DNA of 24,191 nt from a virus (taxonomy: Duplodnaviria > Heunggongvirae > Uroviricota > Caudoviricetes): positions 1 to 24,191 of the IMG/VR virus record IMGVR_UViG_2734482770_000005; one strand, written 5' to 3'. The number at the start of each line of letters is the position of its first letter. The stretch's first letter is position 1. Below, in pieces: positions 1,838 through 23,164 of the stretch. Under the pieces are notes generated by a model. It ran no database searches. It was not told the DNA's origin and was given only the letters and a program-made list of their open reading frames with translations. A program made the position numbers and the translations under genes.

Positions 1838-1931
1838 GGGAAATGAGTTCCGATCTATTTAGGAAATAACCGTGGAAGTGGTTTCCTACCTACCTAGGAA
1901 ATGAGTTCCTATCACCTAGGAAATGATTTCC
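1838..1931. repeat. array of 13-bp GGAA-N5-TTCC dyad motifs (at least 4 copies), putative protein-binding sites
   Basis: ggaaatgagttcc (1838-1850), ggaagtggtttcc (1874-1886), ggaaatgagttcc (1898-1910) and the perfect palindrome ggaaatgatttcc (1919-1931); the last two are preceded by cctag. Confidence 0.5.
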
Positions 1932-2793: not shown

Positions 2794-2828
2794 TTGACAA
2801 AAGCCTTTAGTTATGGTAAAGTAATATT
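2794..2828 (+). promoter_or_regulatory. candidate sigma70-like promoter for the + strand gene run
   Basis: Consensus -35 TTGACA at 2794-2799 inside gggggttgacaaaag, with AT-rich -10 candidates downstream (taaagt at 17 bp spacing, taatat further on). About 120 bp upstream of the first well-supported + strand ORF. Confidence 0.3.
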
Positions 2829-2945: not shown

Positions 2946-3122
2946 GTGAAGTATTTCACTTCTCAAGATGTAGTTGAAGCCTGGAAACGTGGTGAGATCA
3001 ACCGCTTTAGGGTAAGAATGAATAGGAACACAGCGCGACGCTGTGGTTATCCAGAGCGTGAAAAATGTTTTGACGATGCACTAAAAATTATTGATGAACT
3101 GCGTAAAGCAGAGAAAGAATAA
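2946..3122 (+). CDS. hypothetical small protein (58 aa, GTG start)
   Basis: aggagg ribosome-binding site at 2932-2937, GTG at 2946, in-frame to TAA at 3120-3122; product VKYFTSQDVVEAWKRGEINRF...ELRKAEKE. Absent from the ORF track because of the GTG start. Confidence 0.4.
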   Translation: MKYFTSQDVVEAWKRGEINRFRVRMNRNTARRCGYPEREKCFDDALKIIDELRKAEKE

Positions 3123-3145
3123 TAACAGGAGAAGGAGAAAACCAA

Positions 3146-3334
3146 ATGAATATTAATTTTGATTCTGCAACTTATAACGCGTTGTTAAATCGTGCAAAGG
3201 CAGAAGGGAAATCAATTCCAAAACTTGTTAATGAATTACTAATTACAGTCCTTACAAAGGAGGAACTAAATGATCAAAAATATCAAAACAATTGCCGAAG
3301 CGAAAGCCAAATGTCTAAATCAGAAAGATGGTAA
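3146..3334 (+). CDS. small DNA-binding protein, ribbon-helix-helix (CopG/Arc-like) fold suspected
   Basis: Ribosome-binding site ggagaaggag then ATG at 3146. N-terminal MNINFDSATYNALLNRAKAEGKSIPKLVNELL fits a beta-strand plus helix pattern typical of RHH regulators. The 3' end overlaps the next gene's strong start at 3270. Confidence 0.45.
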   Translation: MNINFDSATYNALLNRAKAEGKSIPKLVNELLITVLTKEELNDQKYQNNCRSESQMSKSERW

Positions 3335-3938
3335 ACAAAAATATGTAGTCGTTGAGCAGTGGTTGAAGATGTTTAAAAAGTGGTTCTCACCGTCAGGTAA
3401 TGAATACACCGCTACACTGCCAGCCGTTGAAATCTATAGCTATATAGCTGGATTCAATGAACAAGGGCAAGAATGTTACGCCACTCAAAAAACATTATCT
3501 AATATTGGAATGGTTAGTGATCGCCAGGTTCGCAATATTATAAATATGTTTGTTGATATGGGAGTTCTTTCTGTAGAGGCTCGGGACGGGCAAACATCAC
3601 TCTATAAAGCATTACCATTCACAGATGCACATATTACTCCCCCTGGAGAGTCATCACTACCTGATCCTTCTGAGAAAGAAGACGAATCTAATGAAATATT
3701 GAATGTTTCCGAAATCATCGTTGAAGAAGAAACACAAGAGCCAGAGTTCCCTGAGCGGCCCGAAATTTTTACTTGGCTTCTTTCCCTTGATAAGAAGAAA
3801 CCACCGCACGAAGAAACAGAAGATTTTGTAAAACGAGCATTAGATTCAAAGAATATCTATCTTTGTGAAAATGATTTTGACTCTTTGATAATTGATCTCA
3901 AAAGTGAGAGCACAATATATGATTCACTACCCTTTTAA
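3270..3938 (+). CDS. hypothetical protein with N-terminal winged-helix-like DNA-binding region and acidic C-terminal tail (222 aa)
   Basis: Strong ribosome-binding site aaaggagg 6 nt upstream of ATG. The segment YATQKTLSNIGMVSDRQVRNIINMFVDMGVLSV looks like an HTH recognition helix; the C-terminus is Glu/Asp-rich. Confidence 0.55.
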   Translation: MIKNIKTIAEAKAKCLNQKDGKQKYVVVEQWLKMFKKWFSPSGNEYTATLPAVEIYSYIAGFNEQGQECYATQKTLSNIGMVSDRQVRNIINMFVDMGVLSVEARDGQTSLYKALPFTDAHITPPGESSLPDPSEKEDESNEILNVSEIIVEEETQEPEFPERPEIFTWLLSLDKKKPPHEETEDFVKRALDSKNIYLCENDFDSLIIDLKSESTIYDSLPF

Positions 3939-3947
3939 GGAGAATAA

Positions 3948-4205
3948 ATGGCTTATAACATCACTATAGGAAACAAAACTATTGAAATAACTGAAAGCGG
4001 ATACAACATTTTAAAAGCTATTTTGGACATAGAGTTCTCACCGCCGACAGTGGTTAGCTTTTGTAGTTTAGGCGGCTACAGCGCACAACACGTCAATCGT
4101 TTTACATCGTTCGGTGTGCTGGATTATGAAGGGATTAACAGCACTACATTTCGTCTTTTGAAATTAAACAAAGATTTTGAATTGTTTCTCACAAACAATC
4201 AATAA
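3948..4205 (+). CDS. hypothetical protein (85 aa)
   Basis: Ribosome-binding site aaggag immediately upstream; tightly packed after the previous gene. Confidence 0.5.
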   Translation: MAYNITIGNKTIEITESGYNILKAILDIEFSPPTVVSFCSLGGYSAQHVNRFTSFGVLDYEGINSTTFRLLKLNKDFELFLTNNQ

Positions 4206-6830: not shown

Positions 6831-7862
6831 ATGAATGATTTATCAACATATTTTGGCGTTAATACTGCGGTAGTAACTCCATTTGCTTATGAGAATGCAC
6901 TTAATACCCTGATTACTAATCTCGATCTGTTCGATGTGCAATATCATACAGAAAACAGCATTCTTCTTACCGACCTGATTGATCAGTTTGTGCAGGTAGC
7001 TGGGGAAACCTCGCCTTACGCTCAAAGCGACTGGAACGCCTCTAAACGTCAGGAATGGTCAAACAAACTTTTCCAGATGAAACACGTCGGCAGTATTAAC
7101 GCTGTTACTTCTCGTGACCTGGAACAATACAGCCGCCAATATCCAAACCGTTCTGATGCTATGCTGGTAGCGGTTAATGATTTCTCTGAGGCTCATTACC
7201 GTTCACACGCAAACCGTGTTGAAGTGGATCTGATTACCGCGCTGCTGGGCCTGAAAGTTGAATCTGAATATGCCGGACAAGGTGATCTCGACTTCCTCGA
7301 CGGTCAGGCTAAAACCACGGTACCCGCTATCGACTTTGCATCGACTACTGTTAACCCGTTCCTTGCTATTCGTAAAGCGGTGCGCTTACAGAGTGAAAAG
7401 CTGGGGTCTGGTCTTGCTGCAAAGCGAACTGGTGTAATTATCTTTGCTGCTGGCACTGCTGCTGATGGTTTGTCATCTAACCCGCTGATCAGTGACATGG
7501 TGAAATATGCAGGCGATGCGAGTGCTACGGCCCTGTTTACCCGTATGGTTGATTCTAACCCAGCCTATGACTCTTTCCAGATTGGTGGGATCACTGTTAT
7601 TGATGTGTCAATGTTTCCTGAGATTGTTGCTCACATCGGAGAGAACGGTTTCGCAATTGTTCCGGTAATGGATAAAGCGGCACAGTGTTACCAGCTTCAT
7701 AGCGGCGTTGGTGTGCGTCATGCTGAGTTAGGTCAAGATGCCGTGTTGCATCACCAATATCTAATCAAGGATGAATTCCAATTCCCATCTGTGGTTACTG
7801 AGACATCTTATCTGCCAGTAAACAACATTCCGCAAGCTATCATCTTCGGATCTGCTGCGTAA
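6831..7862 (+). CDS. hypothetical protein (343 aa), possible virion or structural component
   Basis: Ribosome-binding site aaggaaaa; long uninterrupted ORF with a different codon and GC profile from the P4 part. No catalytic motif recognised. Confidence 0.6.
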   Translation: MNDLSTYFGVNTAVVTPFAYENALNTLITNLDLFDVQYHTENSILLTDLIDQFVQVAGETSPYAQSDWNASKRQEWSNKLFQMKHVGSINAVTSRDLEQYSRQYPNRSDAMLVAVNDFSEAHYRSHANRVEVDLITALLGLKVESEYAGQGDLDFLDGQAKTTVPAIDFASTTVNPFLAIRKAVRLQSEKLGSGLAAKRTGVIIFAAGTAADGLSSNPLISDMVKYAGDASATALFTRMVDSNPAYDSFQIGGITVIDVSMFPEIVAHIGENGFAIVPVMDKAAQCYQLHSGVGVRHAELGQDAVLHHQYLIKDEFQFPSVVTETSYLPVNNIPQAIIFGSAA

Positions 7863-8245: not shown

Positions 8246-10087
8246 ATGTTAGAACTTAACGTCAGCCGCTTATCAAACGTTGTCACCTTCCAGGTTGATC
8301 GACCATCATTAGAGAAAGCAAAAGCAGAAGTAGAAAAACTTCGTAAACAAATGGCGGCGGTGAAAGATATAGAATTGCGTGTTAAGACACATAAACAATC
8401 AACTTCTAAAGCAAAAAAAGACGTAGACGATATTGCTAAAAAGCAAGCACAGGCAGATAAAGCCAATGCTAAAGCACAATTAGCCGCTCAACGTGTAGTT
8501 GCAAGAGAACAAAAAGCCCTGGCAGCACGCAAAGAGAAGGCAGACTTAAAACTGTTAGACGTTGGATCAAGCATTAGTGCATTGCACCGCCTTTCTGTAG
8601 CGGAACAATATAAAGCTATTGCACAGGCTAGAGAAATTGCCCTCCAATATGAAAGAGGAGCTATTAGTCTGGCACGTATGAATAGCCAAATGAAACGCCT
8701 ACAACAGCAACAACGTAAGATTAATGGCAATCGTAACGCTCACGCTAAAGCCTATGCACCTGTTAAGGGTAGCGGGAGTATTGGCGGCGGTGCTGCGGCT
8801 GTTATGCTGGGTGGCTTAGGCGCTGGCGCTACGTATATGGCTATGAGCAAAGCCTCTGAATTTGTTACTAACAGCTTTGCGAATGCTGAAACGCTGGGTG
8901 AATTGTATAGCCGTGCGAAGCTGGGCGGTGTAGACGTTAACCAGATGAACAATATTGAGCAATGGGCCTACAAAAACGGCGTTGATTCAATGATGGGGGA
9001 TCAAGGTAAACGTAAGTATCTCGATCAGATGAAAGATGTGCGTGAGCGTGCAACCAAAAGCTATGATGAGGCTGAATATGTAGTCGATAAAAAAACAGGC
9101 AAAGGTGAATGGAAGGGCGGCGATAGCGGCATCAATACTTTAATGAATGAAGGATTCTTAACTAAAAAGGATCTAAAAGACTTTGCTGATAATCCGGCTG
9201 GTCTGGTTAGTAAAGCAGTTCAGGGAATGGTGAAGAAAGGCTATTCAGATGCACAAATCGGTAGTCGTCTGGAAGATCTGGCTGATGATTTGATGCTCAC
9301 CTCTAAATACTGGACACGCTCCGCTAAAGAAGTGGAACAATCAGCACGAGAACAACGAGAATCAGGGCGCTGGGTAACACAGGCACAACAGGAAAGCGTT
9401 ATTAAATTCCGTGAACTGAATAATGCACTTAGTGGGCTTTCTGACTCACAAGGGATCGCCTTTGTTGATGGCTTTATGAAATCTCTTGATCCGAAAGTGA
9501 TTGAAGAGTTTAAAAAGAGCATGGTTGCAATGCTGCCAATGTTTACCAAATTAGGCGAGGCTATCGGCGGATTGGTTAACGCCGTAATGAAAACAATCAA
9601 CTGGCTGATGAAAAACGACGAGAAGACGGAAGCTATTCAGAAGAATTTAGGGGATGCACCGCCACTATCTAACGAAGGAATGAAGCAGAATCTTTCTAAT
9701 CTCACTCCTGATCAATATAAAGGCGCTGGCACCGGAACAACTAAGCCAGATAACAGCAATTCCCTGGTTAACACTATTAAAAGCTGGTTTATGCCAGAAG
9801 AAACGGTAGGTGGGGCGCAGGCTGTAAATCAATACAGTCTCGAAGGACAAAACATTGCAAATCTGAAACAGAGTGCAGCACAACAAGCTTTCAAGGCTCC
9901 TTCTTACACCTTTGCACCTGTTATTAACTTCAATCCAGAATTACAAGTAAATGCAGAAGTGCCGCTAACTATCGAATCAGACACCGGACGATTGAGCGAA
10001 TTTATCGACTTCAAATCAAAGGCATCCTCCGCTGAGTTTAGCAAGCTATTAACGCTGGGTGTTATGTCAGGCGGGTCAACCTATTAA
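8246..10087 (+). CDS. large coiled-coil protein with Gly/Ala-rich hydrophobic segment (613 aa); tape-measure-like or membrane-associated structural protein
   Basis: N-terminal 150 aa are Lys/Ala/Gln/Glu-rich heptad-like sequence (EKAKAEVEKLRKQMAAVK..., KAQLAAQRVVAREQKALAARKEKADLK); then GSGSIGGGAAAVMLGGLGAGATYMAM, a glycine-zipper-like hydrophobic stretch. Confidence 0.6.
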   Translation: MLELNVSRLSNVVTFQVDRPSLEKAKAEVEKLRKQMAAVKDIELRVKTHKQSTSKAKKDVDDIAKKQAQADKANAKAQLAAQRVVAREQKALAARKEKADLKLLDVGSSISALHRLSVAEQYKAIAQAREIALQYERGAISLARMNSQMKRLQQQQRKINGNRNAHAKAYAPVKGSGSIGGGAAAVMLGGLGAGATYMAMSKASEFVTNSFANAETLGELYSRAKLGGVDVNQMNNIEQWAYKNGVDSMMGDQGKRKYLDQMKDVRERATKSYDEAEYVVDKKTGKGEWKGGDSGINTLMNEGFLTKKDLKDFADNPAGLVSKAVQGMVKKGYSDAQIGSRLEDLADDLMLTSKYWTRSAKEVEQSAREQRESGRWVTQAQQESVIKFRELNNALSGLSDSQGIAFVDGFMKSLDPKVIEEFKKSMVAMLPMFTKLGEAIGGLVNAVMKTINWLMKNDEKTEAIQKNLGDAPPLSNEGMKQNLSNLTPDQYKGAGTGTTKPDNSNSLVNTIKSWFMPEETVGGAQAVNQYSLEGQNIANLKQSAAQQAFKAPSYTFAPVINFNPELQVNAEVPLTIESDTGRLSEFIDFKSKASSAEFSKLLTLGVMSGGSTY

Positions 10088-10134: not shown

Positions 10135-10812
10135 ATGGCAATGGGTCCGTTAACCATTGGTCGCCCGACTGAGGCGAAAATCAACAGCACAAGCAACGAT
10201 AGCAACGGTAGAACAACCAAAGGGGGTAACGGCTTTGCGATCATTACCTCTAATCTCGGCAGTGGTGCAAATGCTGCTTACAATGACTACCAGGCATTAT
10301 CATTTGATAGCGTGGAATCGACGAAAGTTAGCAGAAATGCGGACGTTACAAGCTATGCCGTCGAATCAGGATCAGAAGTTAGTGATCATGTTCAAATACG
10401 GAATAACAAGTTCACATTACAAGGGCGTATCTCTGAAACCGTATTGAAGCTCAATCCTGATATGATTAAGAATGCTGGAATTAACGGCAATCGACGTATG
10501 CTTATGCTTGAATACCTAAATCAGTTGATGGACAGTCGCCAACCTTTCCTACTTGTCACTGAGTTAAAAAATTATGACAACGTTGTGTTAGTTGGCATGT
10601 CTTACGAAGAAGAAGCAAGCGAAAGCCTATTGTTTACTCTTGATTTTGAGCAAATCCGTCTTGTCTCTAAAGCAACTACAAGCGCAATTGCGGTAAAAAC
10701 AGCACCAAATAAATCTGTAGGAGGCCAGGTTAAAATGCAGGTAAATACAACAGAACAGAAAAATCAAAAAAGCCCAGGGCAAGACGTTGTAACGCCAGTA
10801 TTTAAACAATAG
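10135..10812 (+). CDS. hypothetical protein (225 aa)
   Basis: aagga ribosome-binding site; follows the 613 aa gene after a short hairpin-containing gap. Confidence 0.55.
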   Translation: MAMGPLTIGRPTEAKINSTSNDSNGRTTKGGNGFAIITSNLGSGANAAYNDYQALSFDSVESTKVSRNADVTSYAVESGSEVSDHVQIRNNKFTLQGRISETVLKLNPDMIKNAGINGNRRMLMLEYLNQLMDSRQPFLLVTELKNYDNVVLVGMSYEEEASESLLFTLDFEQIRLVSKATTSAIAVKTAPNKSVGGQVKMQVNTTEQKNQKSPGQDVVTPVFKQ

Positions 10813-10892: not shown

Positions 10893-12257
10893 CTATAGCG
10901 TTGTTTTACGCCTTAAATTTGATTTTTTATTGATTGATAAGCCTTTCTCTATTTCAGGGTAGCGTAAAAGCTCAATATATTTTTTAAGCTCTATTGGAGA
11001 AGCTGCATTTTTGCTATATGTGCGGAATGTTTCTGTATTGCCGCGTGTATGGCCCAGGAGAAGGGCGATCCTGTCTTCTGGAATTTGATTTCGATCAAGA
11101 AGCTGTGCTACTCCGTGTCTCAGAGAATGAAACACTTTCCTTTCTGTTCCCTTTTCCCCTAAAGCCTTTCGTTTAGCTCTTGTAAATCGTTGTGTATGCC
11201 ACGTAGAGCGTTTACCGTCAGCACGTTCTGTAATGCTGGCGTGATAGAACAAAAAGCCATTGTGAGGCTTTTCACGCAGCGACAACACCAACGGAGTGAT
11301 AAGGTTATGCACAGGCACAACACGTGCCGCAGCTTTCGTCTTTCCCTGTGTGATTTCAAAACACAGCACACCTTCGATCTCTTTCACATCGTCTATTGTG
11401 AGACTTGCTATCTCATTGATCCGCATACCTGTATATAAACCGATAAGACACAAAGCCGTCATTTCTTTGTTTTCTGCTGAATTACCGGAAAATACTTGCA
11501 ACACCTGCAATAGCTCTTTGTTAGAAAATGCCTCGTAGCTCTCTCTACTTTGTGCCACATCAAGCCTATGCCCTCGCCAGGGGGAGAGCGCCCTTTCTGG
11601 CGCATCGTGGTAACGTGATGAAGCTAATTCCCATAGCTGGGCCATTGGACTGATATAATTTGCAATTGATTGTTGTGAAAGAGTTTTTTGCATGTGTTCA
11701 ATCCAGCCTGTAACAGTGGTGCGGCTTACATCTTGCAATGCAATATCAGGCTTTTTACGGTAGGAGAGAAACATCTCTACCGCTTTTCTTGCCTTAGCTA
11801 AAGTGGCTGGCTTCTTCTTCGTGCTGTTAATTGTCAGGTAGATTTCAAGAATTTTAAGCAATGACGGACACGAAGACGCTGTATCTTGCACTCTGGTAGC
11901 TGTTTTGGCGTATTTAGCCTTACTGCGTAACAGTTCCAGCGTGTTTTCTATTGTGCTGTTTACAGGGGCAACACTCTCCCGTAAGCAATGGTATTCATCT
12001 GCAATCTGATCACGCTTTCTACGTGCAACACGAAGATTACTTGTGTGTAGACTTCTGACAAACGTCCTTTTTCCTTCAAAAAAGGGCTGCATATACACAG
12101 GCAGCGTGATCCTTAAATAGTAGTTACCGTAAGAATCACAGATTAAGTATTGGTTAGGCTTGTATCTCATAAAATCTCCGGCTAAAGTGTCGGAGCGTTT
12201 GTAATGTGAAAATTGATTGTGACGCATAGAAAATGATGATTTTTCTATAAGATTCAA
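10893..12257 (-). CDS. tyrosine recombinase / phage-type integrase (454 aa)
   Basis: C-terminal catalytic region carries integrase signatures: GMRINEIASLTIDDV, HSLRHGVAQLL (H-x-x-R box) and LLGHTRGNTETFRTYSKN (tyrosine nucleophile region). Confidence 0.8.
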   Translation of the reverse strand: MNLIEKSSFSMRHNQFSHYKRSDTLAGDFMRYKPNQYLICDSYGNYYLRITLPVYMQPFFEGKRTFVRSLHTSNLRVARRKRDQIADEYHCLRESVAPVNSTIENTLELLRSKAKYAKTATRVQDTASSCPSLLKILEIYLTINSTKKKPATLAKARKAVEMFLSYRKKPDIALQDVSRTTVTGWIEHMQKTLSQQSIANYISPMAQLWELASSRYHDAPERALSPWRGHRLDVAQSRESYEAFSNKELLQVLQVFSGNSAENKEMTALCLIGLYTGMRINEIASLTIDDVKEIEGVLCFEITQGKTKAAARVVPVHNLITPLVLSLREKPHNGFLFYHASITERADGKRSTWHTQRFTRAKRKALGEKGTERKVFHSLRHGVAQLLDRNQIPEDRIALLLGHTRGNTETFRTYSKNAASPIELKKYIELLRYPEIEKGLSINKKSNLRRKTTL

Positions 12258-12495: not shown

Positions 12496-13680
12496 ATGCC
12501 CCTAAATGATATGCAGATTCGCCGTGCTAAACCTGAAGCTAAAGCCTATACACTTGGGGATGGGCAAGGGTTGTCTTTACTTGTAGAGCCAAATGGAAGT
12601 AAAAGCTGGCGATTTCGTTATCGCTATGCCGGTAAACCCAAAATGATCTCGCTTGGTGTTTACCCAACGATCACTCTTGCTGATGCTCGTTCCCGTCGTG
12701 ATGAAGCTCGAAAACTTGTGGCAGAAGGAAAGAACCCTAGTGAGGTTCGAAAAGAGCAAAAGCTGGCTCTGCAAACAGAGTCAGAGAACGCCTTCGAAAA
12801 GATAGCCAGAGAGTGGCATCAACAGAAGTCTACCAAATGGTCGGCGGGATATGCATCAGACATCATGGAAGCGTTTAAGAACGACATTTTTCCTTATGTG
12901 GGAACAAGGCCAGTGGGAGAGATTAAACCGCTAGAACTGCTTAATGTGCTGCGTAAAATCGAAAAGCGCGGTGCATTAGAAAAAATGCGCAAAGTTCGGC
13001 AGCGATGCTCAGAAGTTTTCCGCTATGCCATTGCTACTGGAAGGGCTGAGTTTAACCCTGCTGCGGATCTTTCAAGCGCCCTCAATGTACACCAATCAAA
13101 TCATTTCCCGTTCTTAAAGGCTAATGAGATACCTGATTTTCTTCGCGCCTTAAACGGATATACCGGAAGTCGGCTTGTCCTGATTGCCACGAAATTGCTC
13201 ATGATTACAGGTGTTAGAACCATCGAATTACGTGCGGCATTATGGTCAGAATTTGATTTAGATAACGCTATTTGGGAAATTCCTGCTGAAAGGATGAAAA
13301 TGCGCAGATCACACCTTGTGCCTTTGTCGACTCAAGCGTTAGATTTGCTAAATGAACTCAAGATGATGACAGGGAAGTATAGTTATGTTTTTCCGGGGCG
13401 GAACGATCCGAACAAGCCTATGAGTGAGGCGAGTATTAACCAAGTTATCAAGCGTATTGGTTATGGTGGAAAACTTACTGGTCATGGATTTCGACATTCC
13501 TTATCTACTATCCTCCACGAAAAAGGATATGATTCGGCTTGGATAGAAATACAGCTTGCTCATATAGATAAGAATAATATTAGAGGTACGTATAATCATG
13601 CTCAATATATTGATAAACGCCGTGATATGATGCAGTGGTATTCAGATTATATTTTTATTAAGGAGAATGTGAATGAGTAA
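12496..13680 (+). CDS. int: P4-type tyrosine integrase (394 aa)
   Basis: N-terminal arm-binding region typical of P4/CP4-57 integrases (MQIRRAKPEAKAYTLGDGQGLSLLVEPNGSKSWRFRYRYAGK); C-terminal catalytic motifs HGFRHSLSTIL and LAHIDKNNIRGTYNHAQYIDKRRDMMQWY. Confidence 0.9.
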   Translation: MPLNDMQIRRAKPEAKAYTLGDGQGLSLLVEPNGSKSWRFRYRYAGKPKMISLGVYPTITLADARSRRDEARKLVAEGKNPSEVRKEQKLALQTESENAFEKIAREWHQQKSTKWSAGYASDIMEAFKNDIFPYVGTRPVGEIKPLELLNVLRKIEKRGALEKMRKVRQRCSEVFRYAIATGRAEFNPAADLSSALNVHQSNHFPFLKANEIPDFLRALNGYTGSRLVLIATKLLMITGVRTIELRAALWSEFDLDNAIWEIPAERMKMRRSHLVPLSTQALDLLNELKMMTGKYSYVFPGRNDPNKPMSEASINQVIKRIGYGGKLTGHGFRHSLSTILHEKGYDSAWIEIQLAHIDKNNIRGTYNHAQYIDKRRDMMQWYSDYIFIKENVNE

Positions 13681-15301
13681 CGAGTTTGATAGTAGTAAAC
13701 TAGAAAATTGCTTTGAGCTTGCATTGGAAAATATTATAAAGCACGGCGATACAGATATTTTCCCTTACCCATTTGAAAGTCGGTTATTTGAAGATGATAA
13801 GGAGAAAGTAAAAACTGCATTAATGCAAACATTTAATGACTTTGAAAATAAAAGGATCGAGATTCCACCAAACATAATTAATAGCTTTTCAAGTATTGGT
13901 TATTATGGTTACAGGTGGGCGACCCAAATTGATCCATTCTGGAATGCTTTTTTTCTTGGGTTAGTTTTAAAAATCGCTGATGATATTGAAAGGAATAGAT
14001 CTACTAAAACGCAGGTTTATTCATATCGCTTTAAACCAAACCTTGCTGATGGTTCTCTTTTTGATAAAGAGATCTCTTGGAGAAAATATCAAGAAGACAG
14101 TATCTCTGAATGTTCTAACGATGAAATAAAGTATGTACTTACATGCGATATAGCAGATTTCTATCCGCGTATTTATCACCACCGTTTAGAAAATGCGTTA
14201 GATAGAGTCGACCCCAATAAAGATTACTCTGGGAAAATCAAGAAATTACTACAGACATTTAGTGAAACAAAATCATATGGAGTACCAGTTGGATGTCCTG
14301 CCTCTAGAATATTAGCAGAACTAGCTCTAGATTCTATTGATAAATTATTGTCTATGAATAGAATCAACTATAAGCGTTATGTCGACGACTTTGTTATTTT
14401 TTGTAACTCTAGAGAGGATGCTCATAAGATTTTAACTTTGCTTAGTAAAAAACTGATGGAAAATGAAGGGCTAACTTTACAGAAACAAAAAACCAATATT
14501 GTTACTAAAGAAGAGTTCCTTTCAGTAACTAAAGCTAAGTTGCATGGTAATGATGAAGATGAAGAATCTCCTATGAAGGCTAAATTTATGAGTCTTCCTA
14601 TAAGATTCGATCCTTACTCAGCAAATGCGATAGAGGAATATGAAGAGATAAAGGAATCTTTAAAAGATTTTGACTTGTTAGCTATGCTGAGTAGTGAGTT
14701 ACAAAAATCAAAAATTAACCAATCTTTTAGCAAGCATTTGATAAAGGCATTCTCAGCAACATCAGATGAAATAATAAGTAGTGCTTTCAAAGTAATGTTT
14801 AATAACTTGCATGAGTTATATCCAATATTTACAACTATAATTCAAGTAGCTAACTCCAACTGGCAAAAATTAAGCACAGAAACCAAAGATATTATTCTTG
14901 ATAAAATAACTGCACTAATTAAACAAGATTCATATATTTTGAGTACTGAGCTCAACTTAGCCTATGTAGCCCGAATGCTCTCAAAAGAAAATTCAGAAAA
15001 ATCCACCCTAATCCTTAGTGAAATATACAATAACAATCCAGAAAGCATCTTAGTCAAGAACATAGTTACACAGTCAATGGCAAAAATTAATTCTTACGCA
15101 TGGCTTTCTGATATCAAAAAAAATTTCTCTGCAATGCATCCGTTGCAGAGAAGACTATTGATCGTTTCCAGTTACATCTTAGGTGATGAAGGACGGCACT
15201 GGAGAGAGCATAATAAGAAAACATTCAACTTTGTAGAGGTGATTTACAGGGATTGGGCAAGTAAAAGGCATACCGCAAGAAATCTTGAGGATGCGCTATG
15301 A
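13673..15301 (+). CDS. reverse transcriptase (542 aa) with helical C-terminal extension; non-retron, non-intron defence-type RT suspected
   Basis: RT motif A CDIADFYPRIYHH, motif B SYGVPVGCPASRILAELALDSID, motif C with catalytic YVDD (YKRYVDDFVIF). Start overlaps the int stop by 8 nt with aagga ribosome-binding site. GC is visibly lower than in neighbouring P4 genes. Confidence 0.85.
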   Translation: MSNEFDSSKLENCFELALENIIKHGDTDIFPYPFESRLFEDDKEKVKTALMQTFNDFENKRIEIPPNIINSFSSIGYYGYRWATQIDPFWNAFFLGLVLKIADDIERNRSTKTQVYSYRFKPNLADGSLFDKEISWRKYQEDSISECSNDEIKYVLTCDIADFYPRIYHHRLENALDRVDPNKDYSGKIKKLLQTFSETKSYGVPVGCPASRILAELALDSIDKLLSMNRINYKRYVDDFVIFCNSREDAHKILTLLSKKLMENEGLTLQKQKTNIVTKEEFLSVTKAKLHGNDEDEESPMKAKFMSLPIRFDPYSANAIEEYEEIKESLKDFDLLAMLSSELQKSKINQSFSKHLIKAFSATSDEIISSAFKVMFNNLHELYPIFTTIIQVANSNWQKLSTETKDIILDKITALIKQDSYILSTELNLAYVARMLSKENSEKSTLILSEIYNNNPESILVKNIVTQSMAKINSYAWLSDIKKNFSAMHPLQRRLLIVSSYILGDEGRHWREHNKKTFNFVEVIYRDWASKRHTARNLEDAL

Positions 15302-16038
15302 TATCTGAATTAACGTTTTCTCGAAAATTCACTTCATTTTGGAATCAATTGCTTCCAAATGCTAATAATTTCATACGCATCATTAACGGCAGTCTCATCG
15401 AGGACGTTTATCCTCCTCTAGATGACTGCGCTAATAGGTCAAATAACGTCTTTGTTAATGAGTGCGCATTTAATTTATATAGGGCAATACAGAATGATTC
15501 GTTAGACAGAAATATTCTTTCAGCACATGATATCTTCCATAATGCTGATTTTCAGGTTGTTTTTGAAAAAACAAAAGAATATCTACAGCGGTTCGCTTAC
15601 GGTTCTAACTTCAAGCTACCCTTAAGCATGGTTGAGTACAATGCCATAAGGGAAATAGCAAGAAACATTTTGTCTCGATATGGAATGGAAAACCAAATTG
15701 AAGTGTCTCCACAATTCGATGGATGCGGAGTAATAAATAATTCATATGGCGATATTTATTATTCAAATGTTCTTGTGGAAATAAAATCAGGAGATAGGAA
15801 GTTTAGTGTTTACGATCTTAGACAGGTGCTAATATATTTCACTTTAAACTTTTACTCAAAAAACAAAAGAAACATCAAGAGATTTGAGCTTTTCAATCCT
15901 CGGATGGGTATCACTTATAGTGATACCATTGTCAACCTTTGCAAAGAGTTGGCGTTTATTCAACCTGAAGAATTGTACTTTGAGATAATGAATTCTATTA
16001 CAGAAGAAAATTTCATAGTAACTGAAATGCAACGCTAG
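15298..16038 (+). CDS. RT-associated accessory protein (246 aa), putative effector; function unknown
   Basis: ATGA start/stop overlap with the RT gene (translational coupling). Soluble, no obvious transmembrane segment. Weak motifs: R-x5-H (DRNILSAHD) and D-x11-E-x-K (GDIYYSNVLVEIK). Confidence 0.6.
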   Translation: MISELTFSRKFTSFWNQLLPNANNFIRIINGSLIEDVYPPLDDCANRSNNVFVNECAFNLYRAIQNDSLDRNILSAHDIFHNADFQVVFEKTKEYLQRFAYGSNFKLPLSMVEYNAIREIARNILSRYGMENQIEVSPQFDGCGVINNSYGDIYYSNVLVEIKSGDRKFSVYDLRQVLIYFTLNFYSKNKRNIKRFELFNPRMGITYSDTIVNLCKELAFIQPEELYFEIMNSITEENFIVTEMQR

Positions 16039-16340: not shown

Positions 16341-16913
16341 TTACACAGACTGACGTGATGCCAGTTGCGCACTTTTACGCGAAAAAATCATGTTCTGCGC
16401 AGGGGTGAATTTTTCACGGCTGTCATCCACCGAAGCCGCGTCAGGCCTGAATCCGATGGTCGTTAAAATGTCGCTATCCTGTGCGGAATAATTAATTTTT
16501 TCCCCCTTCGCAAGCCAGGACAGAAGGGCTTCACGCAGGGCATCTGTGGCACGCTGTATGGCACAGTTTCGGGCAATGGCCGTCAGCTCACTGTAGCCCA
16601 TCAGCTCCGGTGCCAGTGCGGCCGCCAGTACTGTGCCGTGCTGCTGCATAAAATCATTCAGCCGGTCGCGGATGCTGATGTGCTGAACGGCTTCATGCGA
16701 ACGAATATAACGACCGGCGGCCTGATTCACCTGCCATTTTCTGACTTCGATAATATTGCGTAATTCGTCCAGGCGGCTGACGTTTCTGCCTTCTCCTGAC
16801 AGAAGCCGCAGATATTCCTGTTCGGCCGCTGCCAGCTCATTTTTGCGTTGCAGCCATGCTGCTTTGTTATTCTGACAGGTGTCAAAGGCCTGCTGTAAGG
16901 CTGTGCTTTCCAT
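16341..16913 (-). CDS. psu: P4 Psu (polarity suppression / capsid decoration protein), 190 aa
   Basis: 190 aa, the P4 Psu length; the sequence MESTALQQAFDTCQNNKAAWLQRKNELAAAEQEY... matches P4 Psu as I recall it; position immediately 5' of delta and sid on the same strand. Confidence 0.8.
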   Translation of the reverse strand: MESTALQQAFDTCQNNKAAWLQRKNELAAAEQEYLRLLSGEGRNVSRLDELRNIIEVRKWQVNQAAGRYIRSHEAVQHISIRDRLNDFMQQHGTVLAAALAPELMGYSELTAIARNCAIQRATDALREALLSWLAKGEKINYSAQDSDILTTIGFRPDAASVDDSREKFTPAQNMIFSRKSAQLASRQSV

Positions 16914-16986: not shown

Positions 16987-17487
16987 TCATTCCAGACGCA
17001 GCGAATATGATTGTGTTTTTAAGCGTACTGGCGGCAGTTCCTGTTTTTCATGCAGGCTTTCTGCCAGTTCGTCCGGCGTGACCGGGCGGACAATGAAGCG
17101 GTTGATGGTCTGAAGCGTTTTAAACACCAGACCACAGCCCGGATCCGTGCACACATAAAAACGCTCGGTGACTTCCTGAGACAGACGCCGCGATGTTCTT
17201 GACAGTGCAAGGCCTTTACATCTCCGACAACAATATCCGGTAACAAGCATTCTTTTCGGGCGTTTCATACTGCCGGAGGCTGACGTCAGTGAATCGCGGT
17301 ATCTCTGTTTGCCTGAAATGTATTCCATTCCTGAATCTTTACAGTCAGAGAAAAAGCTTTCACTCGCTTCAAATGTCGCAGAGCAATAAATATTCCGGCA
17401 CTGTGCAATCATTATCTTGGTGCCATCGTCCATGAAATGTGCGCGACGGGTGTGAGCAACATGTCCACACGACGGGCAGTAAATCAT
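16987..17487 (-). CDS. delta: P4 Delta late-gene activator (Ogr/Delta zinc-finger family), 166 aa
   Basis: Two Cys-rich Ogr-like modules (CPSCGHVAH...CRNIYC and CCRRCKG...CTDPGC); 166 aa as in P4 Delta; overlaps the sid stop by 4 nt. Confidence 0.85.
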   Translation of the reverse strand: MIYCPSCGHVAHTRRAHFMDDGTKIMIAQCRNIYCSATFEASESFFSDCKDSGMEYISGKQRYRDSLTSASGSMKRPKRMLVTGYCCRRCKGLALSRTSRRLSQEVTERFYVCTDPGCGLVFKTLQTINRFIVRPVTPDELAESLHEKQELPPVRLKTQSYSLRLE

Positions 17488-18218
17488 GACAGCAGTCCTC
17501 TGGCCTTAAGCTCTGCTCCCTGCTGGTCTATTTTGTCCTGCCACACCTTGCGCTGTGCCGGTGTGCCTGCCACCTCATAATCCATGTGCGGGAGTGTTGC
17601 CGCTGACAGTCCGGTCAGCCGGAGAACCGGCTCGCCGGTGAGGCTGATTTGCATCTGTTTTATTTTCTGTTCCAGCGATGATTTCACCTGCTGCATGACA
17701 GCTTTATCGGGTGCGACGTAGCCCTGATGGCCGGTGGTGTTGGCGAGCGGATTTTCCTGTACCAGGATGCTCAGATGCATTGCCCGGACAAGCGCCTCAC
17801 AGGTTTCATTCAGGGCGTGTTCCAGCTCATTCTCTGCATACAGACTCAGAAGGTGATGATGTGCCTTCCGGTAGGCGGTGGCCGTGCTGTCACACGCCCC
17901 TTTCAGGCGTTCACGTTCAAAATTCAGCACCACGGCCAGATTGTCATATTCCTGTACCAGCTCCCGGCGTGCCACGCGCTCAATGTGGCGCTGTTTCAGC
18001 TCGTCGCTCAGGACACCACCGGCTGCACGAAAGGCCGTGCGCCAGTCGTCAGCGTCGTTTCCGTCGGCCTGCGCCAGCGCATTTTTTTCCTGCTCTGCCC
18101 GTTCAATGGCCGTGACGGTCTCATCCATCAGGCGGGCGTTCTCAAGATGGGCGGCTCTGGCCTTTTCCAGTTGTGCCAGCGCGGGTTGCAGATATTCAGG
18201 GATGGTGTTGTCAGACAT
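17484..18218 (-). CDS. sid: P4 Sid (capsid size determination external scaffold), 244 aa from MSDNTIPEY
   Basis: The track ORF 17484-18284 extends upstream of the likely start; the ATG at 18218 is preceded by aggagccggaaa and gives 244 aa (the P4 Sid length as I recall it). The protein is largely helical and coiled-coil-like. Confidence 0.8.
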   Translation of the reverse strand: MSDNTIPEYLQPALAQLEKARAAHLENARLMDETVTAIERAEQEKNALAQADGNDADDWRTAFRAAGGVLSDELKQRHIERVARRELVQEYDNLAVVLNFERERLKGACDSTATAYRKAHHHLLSLYAENELEHALNETCEALVRAMHLSILVQENPLANTTGHQGYVAPDKAVMQQVKSSLEQKIKQMQISLTGEPVLRLTGLSAATLPHMDYEVAGTPAQRKVWQDKIDQQGAELKARGLLS

Positions 18219-18290
18219 TTTCCGGCTCCTCGTCACTTCAGGTTGAGAAAATTGTGACGTACACCGGACAACAACACGACGCATTGCAGA

Positions 18291-19036: not shown

Positions 19037-19130
19037 TGATGCCCGCTCTGCAAAAAGTCCCTTTTTCTGGCTTGCCTTTTTCCGGCATTTGCGGATATAG
19101 TTTTTCCGCTGCCGCAAAATCGGCAGCCGG

Positions 19131-19422
19131 GCGTGAGAACCCGGGCAATCTAACGGCGACATATGACGCGCCATGCGTCTTTTTTTGTGTCGCAATCAAC
19201 GCCACAGAGCGCCAGATTATGGTGTGGTGTGTGGTCAGTCGTGCAGATGGCACTCCGTGCATCCTGCCCGCGTCCGCTCATTATGCCGCAGAGTCAATGG
19301 TAGCTCAGGCGGGGCAGCCTCCGGGCTGGCCGGTATCCGTTAGAGCCGGTATTCTCACCCCCGTCTGGGCTATCGCCATCGAGCGTGAGAACTCCGGCGA
19401 TAGCGTAACCTGCTATCTAACG
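19131..19422 (+). ncRNA. putative P4-type immunity-RNA region (seqA / seqB / seqC-like arrangement)
   Basis: Direct repeats gcgtgagaacccgggcaatctaacgg (19131-19156) and gcgtgagaactccggcga...ctatctaacgg (19383-19422) flank ccgttagagccgg (19337-19349), which is complementary to the ccggc...tctaacgg part of both repeats. No well-supported protein ORF covers the interval. Confidence 0.3.
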
Positions 19423-20830: not shown

Positions 20831-23164
20831 ATGAAAATGAACGTAACCGCCACCGTCAGCCATGCGCTCGGCCACTGGCCGCGTATTCTCCCGGCGCTGG
20901 GGATTCCGGTGCTGAAAAACCGTCATCAGCCCTGTCCGGTCTGTGGCGGGAGTGACCGCTTCCGTTTTGATGACAGGGAGGGGCGCGGCACCTGGTACTG
21001 CAATCAGTGTGGTGCCGGTGACGGCCTGAAACTGGTTGAAAAGGTGTTTGGTGTTTCCCCGTCCGATGCGGCCGCAAAGGTGGCTGCCGTGACCGGCAGC
21101 CTGCCACAGGCTGACCCGGCAGTGACGGCCGCCGCCGGTGCTGAAACAGACGCTGCCCGGAAGAACGCCGCCGCACTGGCACAAACCCTGATGGCAAAAA
21201 CCCGTCCCGGAACCGGTAACGCCTACCTGACCCGCAAGGGCTTTCCCGGCCGGGAATGCCGGATGCTGACCGGCACACACAGAGCCGGTGGCGTGAGCTG
21301 GCGTGCCGGTGACCTTGTGGTGCCACTGTATGACGACAGCGGCGAACTGGTTAACCTTCAGTTAATCAGTGCTGACGGCCGTAAGCGCACCCTGAAAGGC
21401 GGACAGGTCAGGGGCACCTGTCACACCCTTGAAGGACAGAATCAGGCCGGAAAACGTCTGTGGATAGCGGAGGGATACGCGACCGCACTTACCGTGCATC
21501 ACCTGACCGGTGAAACGGTGATGGTGGCGCTTTCTTCCGTGAACCTCCTTTCTCTGGCCAGCCTTGCCCGGCAGAAGCATCCGGCCTGTCAGATTGTCCT
21601 TGCCGCAGACCGTGACCTCAGCGGTGACGGCCAGAAAAAAGCCGCCGCAGCCGCAGATGCGTGTGAGGGCGTTGTTGCCCTGCCGCCGGTCTTCGGTGAC
21701 TGGAATGATGCCTTCACGCAGTACGGCGGGGAGGCCACCCGTAAGGCCATTTACGATGCCATCCGGCCACCGGCTGAAAGCCCGTTCGACACCATGAGCG
21801 AAGCAGAGTTTTCCGCCATGAGTACCAGCGAAAAGGCCATGCGTATCTATGAGCATTACGGCGAGGCGCTCGCGGTCGATGCCAACGGCCAGCTTCTGTC
21901 CCGTTATGAAAATGGTGTCTGGAAGGTGCTGCCGCCACAGGACTTTGCCCGGGATGTGGCCGGGCTGTTTCAGCGTCTGCGCGCGCCGTTCTCCTCCGGG
22001 AAGGTGGCCTCCGTGGTGGACACCCTGAAGCTGATTATTCCGCAGCAGGAAGCCCCCTCCCGCCGCCTGATTGGCTTTCGTAACGGCGTGCTCGACACGC
22101 AGAACGGTACGTTCCACCCACACAGTCCGTCACACTGGATGCGCACCCTGTGCGATGTGGATTTCACCCCGCCGGTGGACGGTGAAACGCTGGAAACCCA
22201 CGCCCCCGCGTTCTGGCGCTGGCTTGACCGTGCCGCCGGTGGCCGTGCGGAAAAACGCGACGTGATTCTGGCCGCACTGTTTATGGTGCTGGCAAACCGC
22301 TACGACTGGCAGCTCTTTCTGGAGGTGACCGGTCCCGGCGGCAGCGGCAAAAGTATCATGGCCGAAATAGCCACCCTGCTGGCCGGGGAGGATAACGCCA
22401 CGTCGGCCACCATTGAGACGCTGGAATCCCCGCGTGAACGTGCCGCGTTAACTGGCTTCTCACTGATACGCCTGCCGGACCAGGAAAAATGGAGCGGCGA
22501 CGGTGCCGGACTCAAGGCCATCACCGGCGGCGATGCGGTGTCCGTGGACCCGAAATACCGGGATGCGTACTCCACGCATATCCCGGCGGTGATTCTGGCC
22601 GTGAACAATAACCCGATGCGCTTCACCGACCGCAGCGGCGGCGTGTCACGCCGGCGGGTGATTATTCACTTCCCGGAACAGATAGCCCCGCAGGAGCGCG
22701 ACCCGCAGCTTAAGGACAAAATCACCCGCGAGCTGGCGGTCATCGTGCGTCACCTGATGCAGAAGTTCAGCGACCCGATGCTCGCCCGGTCACTGCTTCA
22801 GTCCCAGCAGAACTCAGACGAGGCGCTGAACATCAAACGGGATGCCGACCCGACGTTTGATTTTATCGGCTATCTGGAAACCCTGCCGCAGACCAGCGGC
22901 ATGTATATGGGGAACGCCAGTATCATCCCGCGTAATTACCGTAAATACCTCTATCACGCCTATCTGGCCTACATGGAGGCAAACGGCTACCGGAACGTAC
23001 TCAGTCTGAAAATGTTCGGGCTGGGGCTACCGGTGATGCTGAAGGAATACGGACTGAATTACGAGAAGCGCCATACCAAACAGGGGATACAGACCAACCT
23101 GACGCTGAAAGAGGAAAGCTACGGCGACTGGCTGCCAAAATGTGACGACCCTGCAACAACCTGA
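20831..23164 (+). CDS. alpha: P4 alpha-type primase-helicase replication protein (777 aa)
   Basis: N-terminal zinc-binding CPVCGG...YCNQCG; central primase region; Walker A P-loop TGPGGSGKS; 777 aa as in P4 alpha; ggaga ribosome-binding site upstream. Confidence 0.9.
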   Translation: MKMNVTATVSHALGHWPRILPALGIPVLKNRHQPCPVCGGSDRFRFDDREGRGTWYCNQCGAGDGLKLVEKVFGVSPSDAAAKVAAVTGSLPQADPAVTAAAGAETDAARKNAAALAQTLMAKTRPGTGNAYLTRKGFPGRECRMLTGTHRAGGVSWRAGDLVVPLYDDSGELVNLQLISADGRKRTLKGGQVRGTCHTLEGQNQAGKRLWIAEGYATALTVHHLTGETVMVALSSVNLLSLASLARQKHPACQIVLAADRDLSGDGQKKAAAAADACEGVVALPPVFGDWNDAFTQYGGEATRKAIYDAIRPPAESPFDTMSEAEFSAMSTSEKAMRIYEHYGEALAVDANGQLLSRYENGVWKVLPPQDFARDVAGLFQRLRAPFSSGKVASVVDTLKLIIPQQEAPSRRLIGFRNGVLDTQNGTFHPHSPSHWMRTLCDVDFTPPVDGETLETHAPAFWRWLDRAAGGRAEKRDVILAALFMVLANRYDWQLFLEVTGPGGSGKSIMAEIATLLAGEDNATSATIETLESPRERAALTGFSLIRLPDQEKWSGDGAGLKAITGGDAVSVDPKYRDAYSTHIPAVILAVNNNPMRFTDRSGGVSRRRVIIHFPEQIAPQERDPQLKDKITRELAVIVRHLMQKFSDPMLARSLLQSQQNSDEALNIKRDADPTFDFIGYLETLPQTSGMYMGNASIIPRNYRKYLYHAYLAYMEANGYRNVLSLKMFGLGLPVMLKEYGLNYEKRHTKQGIQTNLTLKEESYGDWLPKCDDPATT

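Follow-up and report, generated by a model that had tools for sequence, protein, structure and literature searches.

Phased dyad array beside an AT-rich tract as the candidate iteron origin of a putative phage-satellite island in Escherichia coli

Organization of the Island and Structure of the Dyad Array

The window analysed here is the whole stretch of 24,191 nucleotides given by positions 1 to 24,191 of the IMG/VR virus record IMGVR_UViG_2734482770_000005 (Caudoviricetes), and its left 12.3 kb constitutes an integrative island, an identical copy of which lies beside tRNA-Thr in Escherichia coli strain 503025. The island carries, in order, a minus-strand serine recombinase gene, a non-coding stretch of about 1.7 kb with an array of dyad-symmetric sites, a promoter, the conserved gene orfA, a ribbon-helix-helix (RHH)-like gene, a winged-helix gene and small genes, followed by genes for a weakly capsid-like protein, a 613-aa tail-protein homologue, a Dit-like tail protein and a tyrosine integrase (Table 1). 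Comparison with related loci indicates that the array is very probably the cognate binding-site set of the N-terminal domain (N1) of the winged-helix protein, and we take it as the putative iteron part of the replication origin of this ~12-kb island (window 1 to ~12,300), a reading to which we would give a probability of roughly 0.65.

An exact scan of the 24-kb window with GGAANNNNNTTCC returned five matches, four of which are clustered within 93 bp, whilst dinucleotide-preserving shuffles of the window (n = 100) contained 0.50 ± 0.70 matches and reached five or more in 0/100 cases. The scan and the shuffles thereby bear out the preliminary description of this DNA, which had noted four GGAA-N5-TTCC dyads within 1838–1931, one of them a perfect palindrome; its distances were also reproduced, with the recombinase start 562 bp off and the RHH (3146) and winged-helix (3270) genes 1.2–1.3 kb downstream. 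The repeat unit exceeds 13 bp and reads ACCTrGGAAATGAkTTCC, with copies starting at 1834, 1869, 1892 and 1914 (spacings of 35, 23 and 22 bp); when the half-site between sites 1 and 2 is counted, the unit starts are 1834, 1857, 1869, 1892 and 1914. Site 2 has the flanking TACCTA on its right and not on its left, so that its extended unit is oppositely oriented. The four dyads and the half-site thus provide more than the three repeated, helically phased sites expected of an initiator target, and relatives of the island carry perfect 22–23 bp tandem arrays. Since the dyads are two helical turns apart, they would lie on one face of the DNA, and the array has the appearance of a target at which a dimeric DNA-binding protein would bind cooperatively, as had been proposed.

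Table 1. Features of the island and of its non-coding region, with window coordinates.
Feature	Coordinates	Strand	Remarks
Serine recombinase gene	719–1276	−	Resolvase domain
Orphan type-B dyad	1782–1794	none	GGTCACTGTGAGC; single copy; amplified 2–7x in N2 islands
Orphan type-E dyad	1801–1814	none	TATCAAGTCTGATA; single copy; amplified 4x in the N5 island L135
Type-A array (candidate iterons)	1834–1931	none	Four GGAA-N5-TTCC dyads and one half-site in a 22–23 bp register
A site 1	1839–1851	none	GGAAATGAGTTCC; exact scan
Half-site	1860–1867	none	TAGGAAAT; occupies the 23-bp register gap between sites 1 and 2; direct sequence reading
A site 2	1874–1886	none	GGAAGTGGTTTCC; extended unit inverted
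A site 3	1897–1909	none	GGAAATGAGTTCC; exact scan
A site 4	1919–1931	none	GGAAATGATTTCC; perfect 6+1+6 palindrome
AT-rich tract (candidate DNA-unwinding element)	1932–2005	none	Directly 3′ of the array; short direct repeats (ACTAyAATTAAAC) and TATAAT
Imperfect palindrome	1994–2046	none	24-nt arms, 5-nt gap; far edge of the AT-rich tract; also in L127
Operon promoter	2794–2822	+	TTGACA-17-TAAAGT with upstream TG; strong sigma-70; followed by a conserved dyad
orfA	2946–3122	+	Conserved first operon gene, 58 aa
RHH-like gene, allele b1	3146–3334	+	Overlaps the start of the initiator gene (65 nt); 98% identical to a gene of lytic phage PaulScherrer
Isolated A-type dyad	3207–3219	none	GGAAATCAATTCC; within the RHH gene, 51 bp 5′ of the initiator start codon
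Winged-helix gene (candidate initiator)	3270–3938	+	222 aa
Protein weakly similar to major head proteins	6831–7862	+	PHROG 29, E 5.5e-5
613-aa tail-gene homologue	8246–10087	+	Mt1B1_P17 QNJ49308, tblastn 28%, E 1e-19; PHROG 16051, tape-measure-like, E 3.4e-34
Dit-like tail protein	10135–10812	+	Pfam Dit_like, E 1e-27; 53% to the adjacent Mt1B1_P17 QNJ49307, tblastn E 1.5e-62
Tyrosine integrase	10893–12257	−	Pfam Phage_integrase; far end of the island

No open reading frame (ORF) of ≥40 aa covers the array on either strand, and the array itself found no match among phage sequences, even in a distant search mode. A motif scan of IMG/VR with TAGGAAATGANTTCC returned nearly exclusively single chance matches, the sole double match being an E. 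coli island. The array together with its AT-rich tract was detected in 271 of 5426 complete E. coli genomes.

Five Array Types and Their Association with the N-Terminal Domain

A total of 37 related loci were compared, drawn from complete E. coli genomes, one plasmid, IMG/VR and GTDB, and orfA was used as the anchor because the capsid-like protein of the window is just 17–19% identical to the copies of other islands. A contig scan found the family confined to Escherichia, except for two Bacillota-labelled contigs of metagenome-assembled genomes, of which one has 96% identity to the query. At the homologous position each locus holds one of five unrelated dyad arrays, repeated at about 22–23 bp or at multiples of 11 bp, namely type A (GGAAAT-N-ATTTCC), type B (TAGGTCAC-N-GTGACCTA), type C (TAACAGAAAACTGTTA), type D (GTAACG-N3-CGTTAC) and type E (TATCAA-N-TTGATA), and the DNA just 5′ of the amplified array often contains single orphan sites of other types.

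The N-terminal domains of the winged-helix proteins of these relatives fall into five clusters (N1 to N5), and each cluster goes with one amplified array: N1 with A (7/7), N2 with B (12/12), N3 with C (10/10), N4 with D (7/7) and N5 with E (1/1). The adjusted mutual information (AMI) between N-domain cluster and array type is accordingly 1.00 over the 37 loci, which represent 17 distinct module combinations. The modules that lie between the two track the array far less, with AMI values of 0.04 for 600 bp of non-coding DNA, 0.13 for orfA and 0.52 for orfB, the RHH gene, and the C-terminal part of the winged-helix protein itself reaches only 0.19. The match of N-domain and array therefore survives recombination of the intervening DNA, which argues for a functional coupling rather than mere linkage. 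Arrays of two to four A sites occur in all seven loci whose winged-helix protein carries N1. The covariation thus points to the protein encoded at 3270–3938, one of the binders suggested beforehand, as the likely cognate initiator, and together with the AT-rich tract it favours an origin iteron set among the functions that had been listed for the array.

Across the 37 loci only seven matches to the A pattern were found downstream of orfA, which equals the number of N1 loci. The site at 3207–3219 was confirmed in the window, in L004 and in L007, and it is also present in a phage copy of the RHH gene; we read the seven downstream matches as this site in the N1 loci, where it is possibly autoregulatory.

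The RHH protein had been named as a binder as well, and here the outcome is divided. In such a reading the b1 protein would bind the dyads as a CopG/Arc-type tetramer on a 13-bp pseudo-symmetric element and would serve copy number or expression. CopG and Arc act as dimers of RHH dimers on dyads of about 13 bp, a geometry that suits the sites observed; b1 occurs in every N1/A locus and in no N2–N5 locus, and an A-type site lies within the b1 gene. The linkage, however, is physical, as b1 overlaps the coding start of N1 by 65 nt, and in the other four classes the orfB alleles do not follow the array: both b2 and b3 occur with B and C arrays, b2 also with D and b3 also with E, and the islands L005 (b3) and L006 (b2) have the same arrays. 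Only b1 is thus array-specific, A arrays occur in three islands without b1, the operon promoter lies 860 bp downstream of the array, and the phage nucleases described below use N1, not RHH, as their DNA-binding module. We consider it quite improbable that the array serves the RHH protein.

The serine recombinase fares worse. The preliminary description had set the array in relation to this gene and had listed accessory sub-sites of a recombination site among its possible functions, and inverted repeats clustered between genes close to a small serine recombinase do recall the res sites of Tn3/gamma-delta, proximity (562 bp) being all that speaks for it. The recombinase is missing at 15 of the 37 array-keeping loci, the type-A loci L129 and L136 included (with 2.8–9.5 kb of upstream sequence per locus), and copies that are 99–100% identical lie beside A, B, C and D arrays, so that neither the presence nor the sequence type of the array depends on the recombinase, and the array covaries with a different protein. 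The geometry is also wrong, since a resolvase dimer site in Tn3/gamma-delta res spans 25–34 bp and a 13-bp dyad is too short for it. The array is therefore not a member of the res class, and res-type sub-sites for the 719–1276 recombinase have a practically negligible chance. Being present in 22 of the 37 loci, sometimes as a variant of 56–58% identity, the recombinase behaves as an accessory cargo gene. Its gene has about 50% GC in surroundings of 32–40% GC (601–1300), and a long antisense ORF runs through 654–1127.

Three N2 islands contain two units in tandem. In L005 (8040–8294), L006 and L151 an A array with its own AT-rich tract is followed by the cognate B array with a second AT-rich tract, and in L005 both tracts share an identical 23-nt segment. 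These doubled units could be tandem origin-like units, a decoy or a relic.

The Winged-Helix Protein as Candidate Initiator

The protein encoded at 3270–3938 has a variable N-terminal winged helix (N1, about aa 30–118), after which come the conserved linker TDAHITPP, an acidic and disordered stretch, a C-domain that is small and helical, and a tail ending in ...YDSLPF. The Pfam family HTH_36 is matched above its cut-off in relatives, with 32.0 bits in L135 and 43.6 bits in a phage fusion, while Phage_rep_O (E 0.014) and DnaD_N give marginal Pfam matches. PHROG 270, 8102 and 186 were matched at E 3.6e-6 to 1.7e-4 by the window protein and down to 5e-17 by the phage fusions, and the names of the families matched by the N-domains are 'replication initiation protein', 'replication initiation O-like' and 'DnaD-like helicase loader'. 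The AlphaFold2 (AF2) model has a mean predicted local distance difference test (pLDDT) score of 72.7 overall and of 84–94 in the winged helix, and the top PDB matches of this model in Foldseek include the RepA_N plasmid initiators 4pql, 4pt7 and 5kbj and the DnaD N-terminal domain 2v79. The RepA structure of PLEs, elements that resemble phage-inducible chromosomal islands, likewise resembles RepA_N initiators, 4pt7 among them, and DnaD-N 2v79 (PMC7145576).

At the C-terminus, the pattern [DE]..[IL]PF ends 138 of 157 relatives and is kept even where the rest of the C-domain differs. The C-terminal motif DDDIPF of SSB, a protein that binds single-stranded DNA, docks replication proteins (PMC5872125), and the tail ...YDSLPF resembles the E. 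coli SSB tail ...DDDIPF. In the window the tail ...IYDSLPF is encoded by 3917–3938, and other alleles end in EDFDIPF.

The AT-Rich Tract and the Remaining Non-Coding Region

The array is directly followed by DNA of 90% AT (about 1940–1999), and the AT-richest 60-bp window of the 2.9 kb 5′ of orfA starts 8 bp past the array. The CAATACTATAATTAAA segment of this tract is invariant in four loci. In all 37 loci, and hence for all five types, the cognate array abuts an AT-rich tract (74–91% AT over the next 80 bp), which is the AT-richest stretch of the upstream region (up to 3.3 kb) in most loci; its designation as a candidate unwinding element is judged by composition alone. The tract is semi-conserved across array types, so it looks like the constant part of the unit, with the array as the specificity part. 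In L159 the tract after the A array, about 1250–1180 nt 5′ of its orfA, holds four tandem 13-mers (ATACTATAATTAA), which resemble the 13-mer repeats of oriC unwinding elements. A single match to the core motif of integration host factor (IHF) was found at 1516, distant from the array.

The operon promoter lies about 860 bp downstream of the array and is conserved, together with its dyad, in all loci whatever their array type. This dyad (AGGGACAGGAAAACATTCCTATCCTCT and variants, 2826–2856), directly 3′ of the promoter, occupies the same position in 37/37 loci independently of array type, and a conserved regulator, such as orfA, RHH or a host factor, may use it as an operator. The array as operator of the operon promoter was thus rejected, the promoter being located elsewhere and conserved independently of array type, and the repressor operator that had been suggested earlier is weakened by the same separate sigma-70 site.

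A wider regulatory role was considered as well. The winged-helix protein could be a transcription regulator, with the array as operator or activator site for promoters in the AT-rich DNA, one rightward at 1940–1945 and one on the minus strand (2025–1998) that would read through the array. A perfect TATAAT does stand right after the array, invariant in four loci, the minus-strand site matches sigma-70 at 10 of 12 positions, and L007 has TTGACA-N18-TATAGT just 5′ of its remaining repeats; MarR and Fur regulators fit the AF2 model about equally with initiators, some relatives are labelled 'transcriptional regulator' in RefSeq, and covariation by itself shows cognate binding, not the purpose of binding. 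Hexamers resembling a −10 element are expected by chance in DNA of 90% AT, however, and a promoter scan gave four sites versus 7.2 in shuffles. The strong operon promoter, 860 bp off, has its own dyad; the N-domains match families of replication initiators and not of repressors; an acidic linker and an SSB-like tail are not features of regulators; and four to five phased sites beside a 70-bp tract of 90% AT make up the architecture of an origin. A phage nuclease directed against an operator would also be harder to rationalise than one directed against an origin. We therefore regard the regulatory role as unlikely, although it keeps some weight.

Between the AT-rich tract and the operon promoter, the stretch 2006–2470 (wider 2000–2790) has a predicted RNA fold of −133 kcal/mol (z = −4.4 versus shuffles) and long-range inverted repeats (2112–2133/2375–2396, 2194–2205/2449–2460 and 2020–2037/2076–2093). 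It matches no Rfam family, and Rfam found nothing credible in the non-coding DNA from 1277 to 2945 as a whole; the stretch may represent either a structured RNA or some DNA structure that is part of the origin.

The Island as a Putative Satellite of Stephanstirmvirinae Phages

The island measures about 12.8 kb in L004, where it lies between tRNA-Thr and flanking core genes, and relatives are also found at tRNA-Gly. Of 5426 complete E. coli genomes, 734 possess the region, members of the O104:H4 outbreak lineage among them. It has the form expected of a phage satellite, that is, an integrase-bearing island within the range of ~7–20 kb at an attachment site and without the full virion gene set, as terminase, portal and replisome genes were not detected in it.

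Several genes tie the island to Stephanstirmvirinae phages. The Dit-like protein and the 613-aa protein are homologous to adjacent genes of phage Mt1B1_P17, and RHH and N-domains with 86–100% identity occur in these phages. The equivalents of the 6831–7862 gene are annotated as major capsid proteins in related islands, and a diverged version of the phage gene for QNJ49318, which has the size of a capsid protein, occurs in one related island at 22% identity. The tail-gene and capsid-like homologues fit a satellite that exploits these phages, and we consider it probable that the island is such a satellite and that the phage fusions described below are origin-directed nucleases.

The array was also considered as a packaging site comparable to the R sites of lambda cosB, bound by a winged-helix protein of the small-terminase kind and directing the DNA into helper capsids. 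A satellite requires such a signal, and a terminase gene was not identified in the island. Phased sites for winged-helix proteins are known in cosB and pac regions, those of gpNu1 in lambda cosB being an example. Against this, the N-domains match initiator and not terminase families, the neighbouring feature is an AT-rich tract of the unwinding type and not a nicking site, the SSB-like tail points to the replisome, and five interchangeable specificities would each need a matching helper terminase, yet the phage genome (first 150,000 bp of Mt1B1_P17) is without these sites. The chance of a packaging site is accordingly slight. A centromere of the parC/ParR type was rejected, as the island has no partition ATPase gene.

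Candidate Chimeric Nucleases of the Phages

The phage matches of this region fall on the RHH gene (3132–3298) and on the N1 domain (3365–3682), those in the winged-helix gene being about 93% identical to sequences of Mt1B1_P17, muut, inny and BI-EHEC. In several lytic Stephanstirmvirinae phages, early-gene proteins were found to consist of two island-type N-domains and a C-terminal candidate nuclease domain: QNJ49226 of Mt1B1_P17 combines N3 (100% over 89 aa, island linker included) with N1 (86%), muut_154 combines N5 (99%) with N1 (93%), and inny_184 combines N4 (92%) with N1 (93%), each followed by that domain. The phage domains are thus 86–100% identical to N1, N3, N4 and N5 of the islands, as would be expected of DNA-binding domains of the Odn type.

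The C-terminal domain matches PHROG 681 'endonuclease' (E 1.6e-18), and homologous genes in T5-like, Klebsiella and Vibrio phages, which share the motifs LYI / KxGIT / R / E / WLPDGYTET with it, bear annotations as homing or GIY-YIG endonucleases. No matches came from a protein search in which the nuclease domain was the sole query, and NCBIfam gave nothing useful. The first 150,000 of the 151,202 bp of Mt1B1_P17 are free of A and C arrays and of strict A sites, so the targets of its domains would have to lie outside the phage.

In inny the island RHH gene b2 lies directly 5′ of the chimeric nuclease, and PaulScherrer has b1 alone at the same locus, so that phages may have captured the regulator of the satellite as well as its DNA-binding domains. 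In two other records the RHH slot is located at 4015–4200 (L001) and 1218–1400 (L163). The same nuclease domain is fused to DNA-binding repeats with CapR homology in Vibrio phage 496E54-1 (L165, 10–1227), which suggests that this nuclease family repeatedly swaps its DNA-binding modules.

Proposed Mechanism and Its Weak Points

Taking the array as an origin, we propose that dimers of the N1 domain would bind the four dyads, as the covariation indicates, and that the resulting nucleoprotein complex would open the 70-bp, 90%-AT tract 3′ of the array, an arrangement that is conserved in every relative. The acidic linker and the SSB-like tail may then bring in proteins of the replisome or primosome, either from the host or from an infecting phage, a step that the motif alone suggests. 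Given the absence of an own helicase or primase, the diverged Stephanstirmvirinae tail genes and the capsid gene of related islands, the element is best read as a satellite that replicates during infection, and its replication would rely on host or helper machinery, as with PLE. Origin and initiator N-domain would form one specificity module with at least five interchangeable versions. The phage chimeras would bind and cut the arrays, as Odn of phage ICP1 cuts the PLE origin, and such cutting would explain the repeated swapping of modules.

A broader picture can be offered tentatively, and we hold it somewhat less likely than its negation: these islands would be widespread E. coli satellites of virulent phi92/phAPEC8-like (Stephanstirmvirinae) phages, with at least five interchangeable origin/initiator specificities because phages capture initiator domains, stack two of them per GIY-YIG nuclease and cut origins, in an arms race of the Odn/PLE type in which the type-A array would be one target and a mimic of the SSB tail would recruit the replisome.

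Several observations weigh against the array being an origin or against parts of the mechanism. Every mechanistic step, namely binding, replication, excision and cleavage, is inferred. All 37 loci are from Escherichia and many are near-identical, so that the effective sample is about 17 module combinations. Allele b1 accompanies 7/7 of the N1/A-array loci, a linkage to the array as complete as that of N1 (overlapping genes), and since b1 is always linked to N1, covariation alone does not separate the two as binders of type A; a full A array also occurs without an N1 gene in the locus in the three N2 islands L005, L006 and L151. The window protein scores 23.3 bits with HTH_36, below the cut-off of 25, and its Foldseek scores are weak (E 3e-3 to 6e-2), regulators of the MarR/Fur type being similar. 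Neither TTWTNCACA nor TTATCCACA at ≤1 mismatch, the DnaA boxes searched for, was found in 1300–2950. The TATAAT at 1940–1945 and the promoter-like minus-strand site at 2025–1998 leave room for a transcriptional role, and Pfam and PHROG scans detected no helicase, loader or primase gene in the island. On the phage side, the nuclease domain stays below Pfam cut-offs (MUG113, 21.2 versus 22.3 bits; T5orf172, E 0.037), and in the AF2 model of a phage fusion both winged helices are modelled, whilst the nuclease domain has a pLDDT of <50. As to the DnaA boxes, they are typical of many iteron plasmids and not of lambda or PLE, and they are not defining for the subclass of phage and satellite origins.

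Comparison with Known Systems

Both the iteron origin, as an element, and the Odn/PLE conflict, as an interaction, belong to established kinds. A search of the literature found no description of this island family, of the five-way modularity, of the SSB-like tail or of the dual-domain nucleases, though such descriptions could exist elsewhere.

The closest parallel is provided by PLE and Odn of Vibrio cholerae and its phage ICP1 (PMC7145576, PMC8263062). Odn joins an N-terminal domain homologous to the RepA_N domain of PLE to a T5orf172 nuclease domain, cuts the PLE origin in an iteron-dependent manner and selects for exchange of the replication module (PMC8263062). PLE is likewise an integrative satellite of a lytic myovirus, with semi-palindromic iterons in a non-coding origin and an initiator that has a winged-helix N-domain and a C-domain of unknown partner, without an own helicase or primase; origin and N-domain are exchanged as a module between satellite variants, and Odn, too, is a phage chimera of a copied initiator DNA-binding domain and a nuclease of the T5orf172/GIY-YIG type. 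The present system differs in its E. coli host, its Stephanstirmvirinae phages and the lack of any detectable sequence relation, the N-domains matching Pfam HTH_36/O-like rather than RepA_N, and it has at least five specificity modules. Its phage proteins carry two tandem N-domains (N3, N4 or N5, then N1) with 86–100% identity, versus 42% for Odn, and some of them are accompanied by a captured RHH gene. Further differences are the SSB-like ...IPF tail of the initiator and the presence of helper tail-gene homologues and, in related islands, of a capsid-gene homologue, and the system is known from sequence alone.

In the lambda origin four phased dyads are followed by an AT-rich tract and then by a palindrome, and this layout is repeated here. 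As in the lambdoid ori/O classes, an N-terminal winged helix that varies among relatives would set the specificity while the rest is exchangeable, and the PHROG matches to 'replication initiation O-like' agree with this. Unlike in lambda, where the origin is inside the initiator gene, the candidate origin is found in non-coding DNA 1.3 kb upstream of that gene, there is no P-like helicase loader, the C-terminus is SSB-like in place of a P-binding domain, and Phage_rep_O is matched only marginally.

Iteron plasmids (RepA_N plasmids pSK41/pTZ2162; pPS10, R6K and RK2) share phased repeats of about 22 bp beside an AT-rich element, a co-varying Rep protein, the fold matched in 4pql, 4pt7 and 5kbj, and a possible single autoregulatory site 5′ of the rep start (3207–3219 here). 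The element described here, however, is integrated and without DnaA boxes, each of its repeats is itself a dyad, and no partition or copy-control genes were seen. Phage-inducible chromosomal islands (PICIs), such as Staphylococcus aureus pathogenicity islands (SaPIs), and P4 are comparable as integrase-bearing islands, here of about 12 kb and at a tRNA gene, with an own origin and a specific initiator. The initiators of PICI/SaPI and P4 bear primase and/or helicase domains (PMC7145576), whereas the candidate initiator here has neither, and the island has no genes of the AlpA, Stl, Sid, Psu or Delta type.

If the proposed mechanism is true, it would be a second, independent case of phages weaponising the origin-binding domain of a satellite, so far seen only for ICP1 and PLE in Vibrio cholerae, in an E. 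coli setting with obtainable strains and phages (PaulScherrer/Bas60 of the BASEL collection, Mt1B1_P17, muut and inny). The five pairs of array and N-domain would form a natural orthogonal recognition set, of use for studies of specificity evolution or as engineering parts, and the dual-domain nucleases suggest that phages widen their target range by stacking captured domains. How PLE RepA recruits the replication machinery has been stated to be an open question (PMC7145576), and the SSB-like tail offers a testable route by which an initiator without helicase and primase could recruit the replisome. As about one in eight E. coli genomes has such an island, the islands may affect the host range of phages that are candidates for therapy.

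Neighbouring Element and a Plasmid-Borne Copy

The remainder of the window (12.4–24.2 kb) is a separate P4-like satellite that adjoins the island. It carries a P4-type integrase (12496–13680), a reverse-transcriptase gene (13673–15301) with a 246-aa partner (15298–16038) in the variable hotspot, Psu (16341–16913), Delta (16987–17487), a gene in the Sid position (17484–18284) and the alpha primase-helicase (20831–23164), and Rfam recognised a P4-like RNA immunity region with C4 (19293–19380), isrK (19108–19185) and c4-a1b1 (19095–19147). Among the related loci, L003 is a copy of the island on the conjugative IncF plasmid pEND_Eco 19019-1 (NZ_CP126938.1), which is broken by several IS3 copies, one of them inserted in non-coding DNA, after the D array and before orfA.

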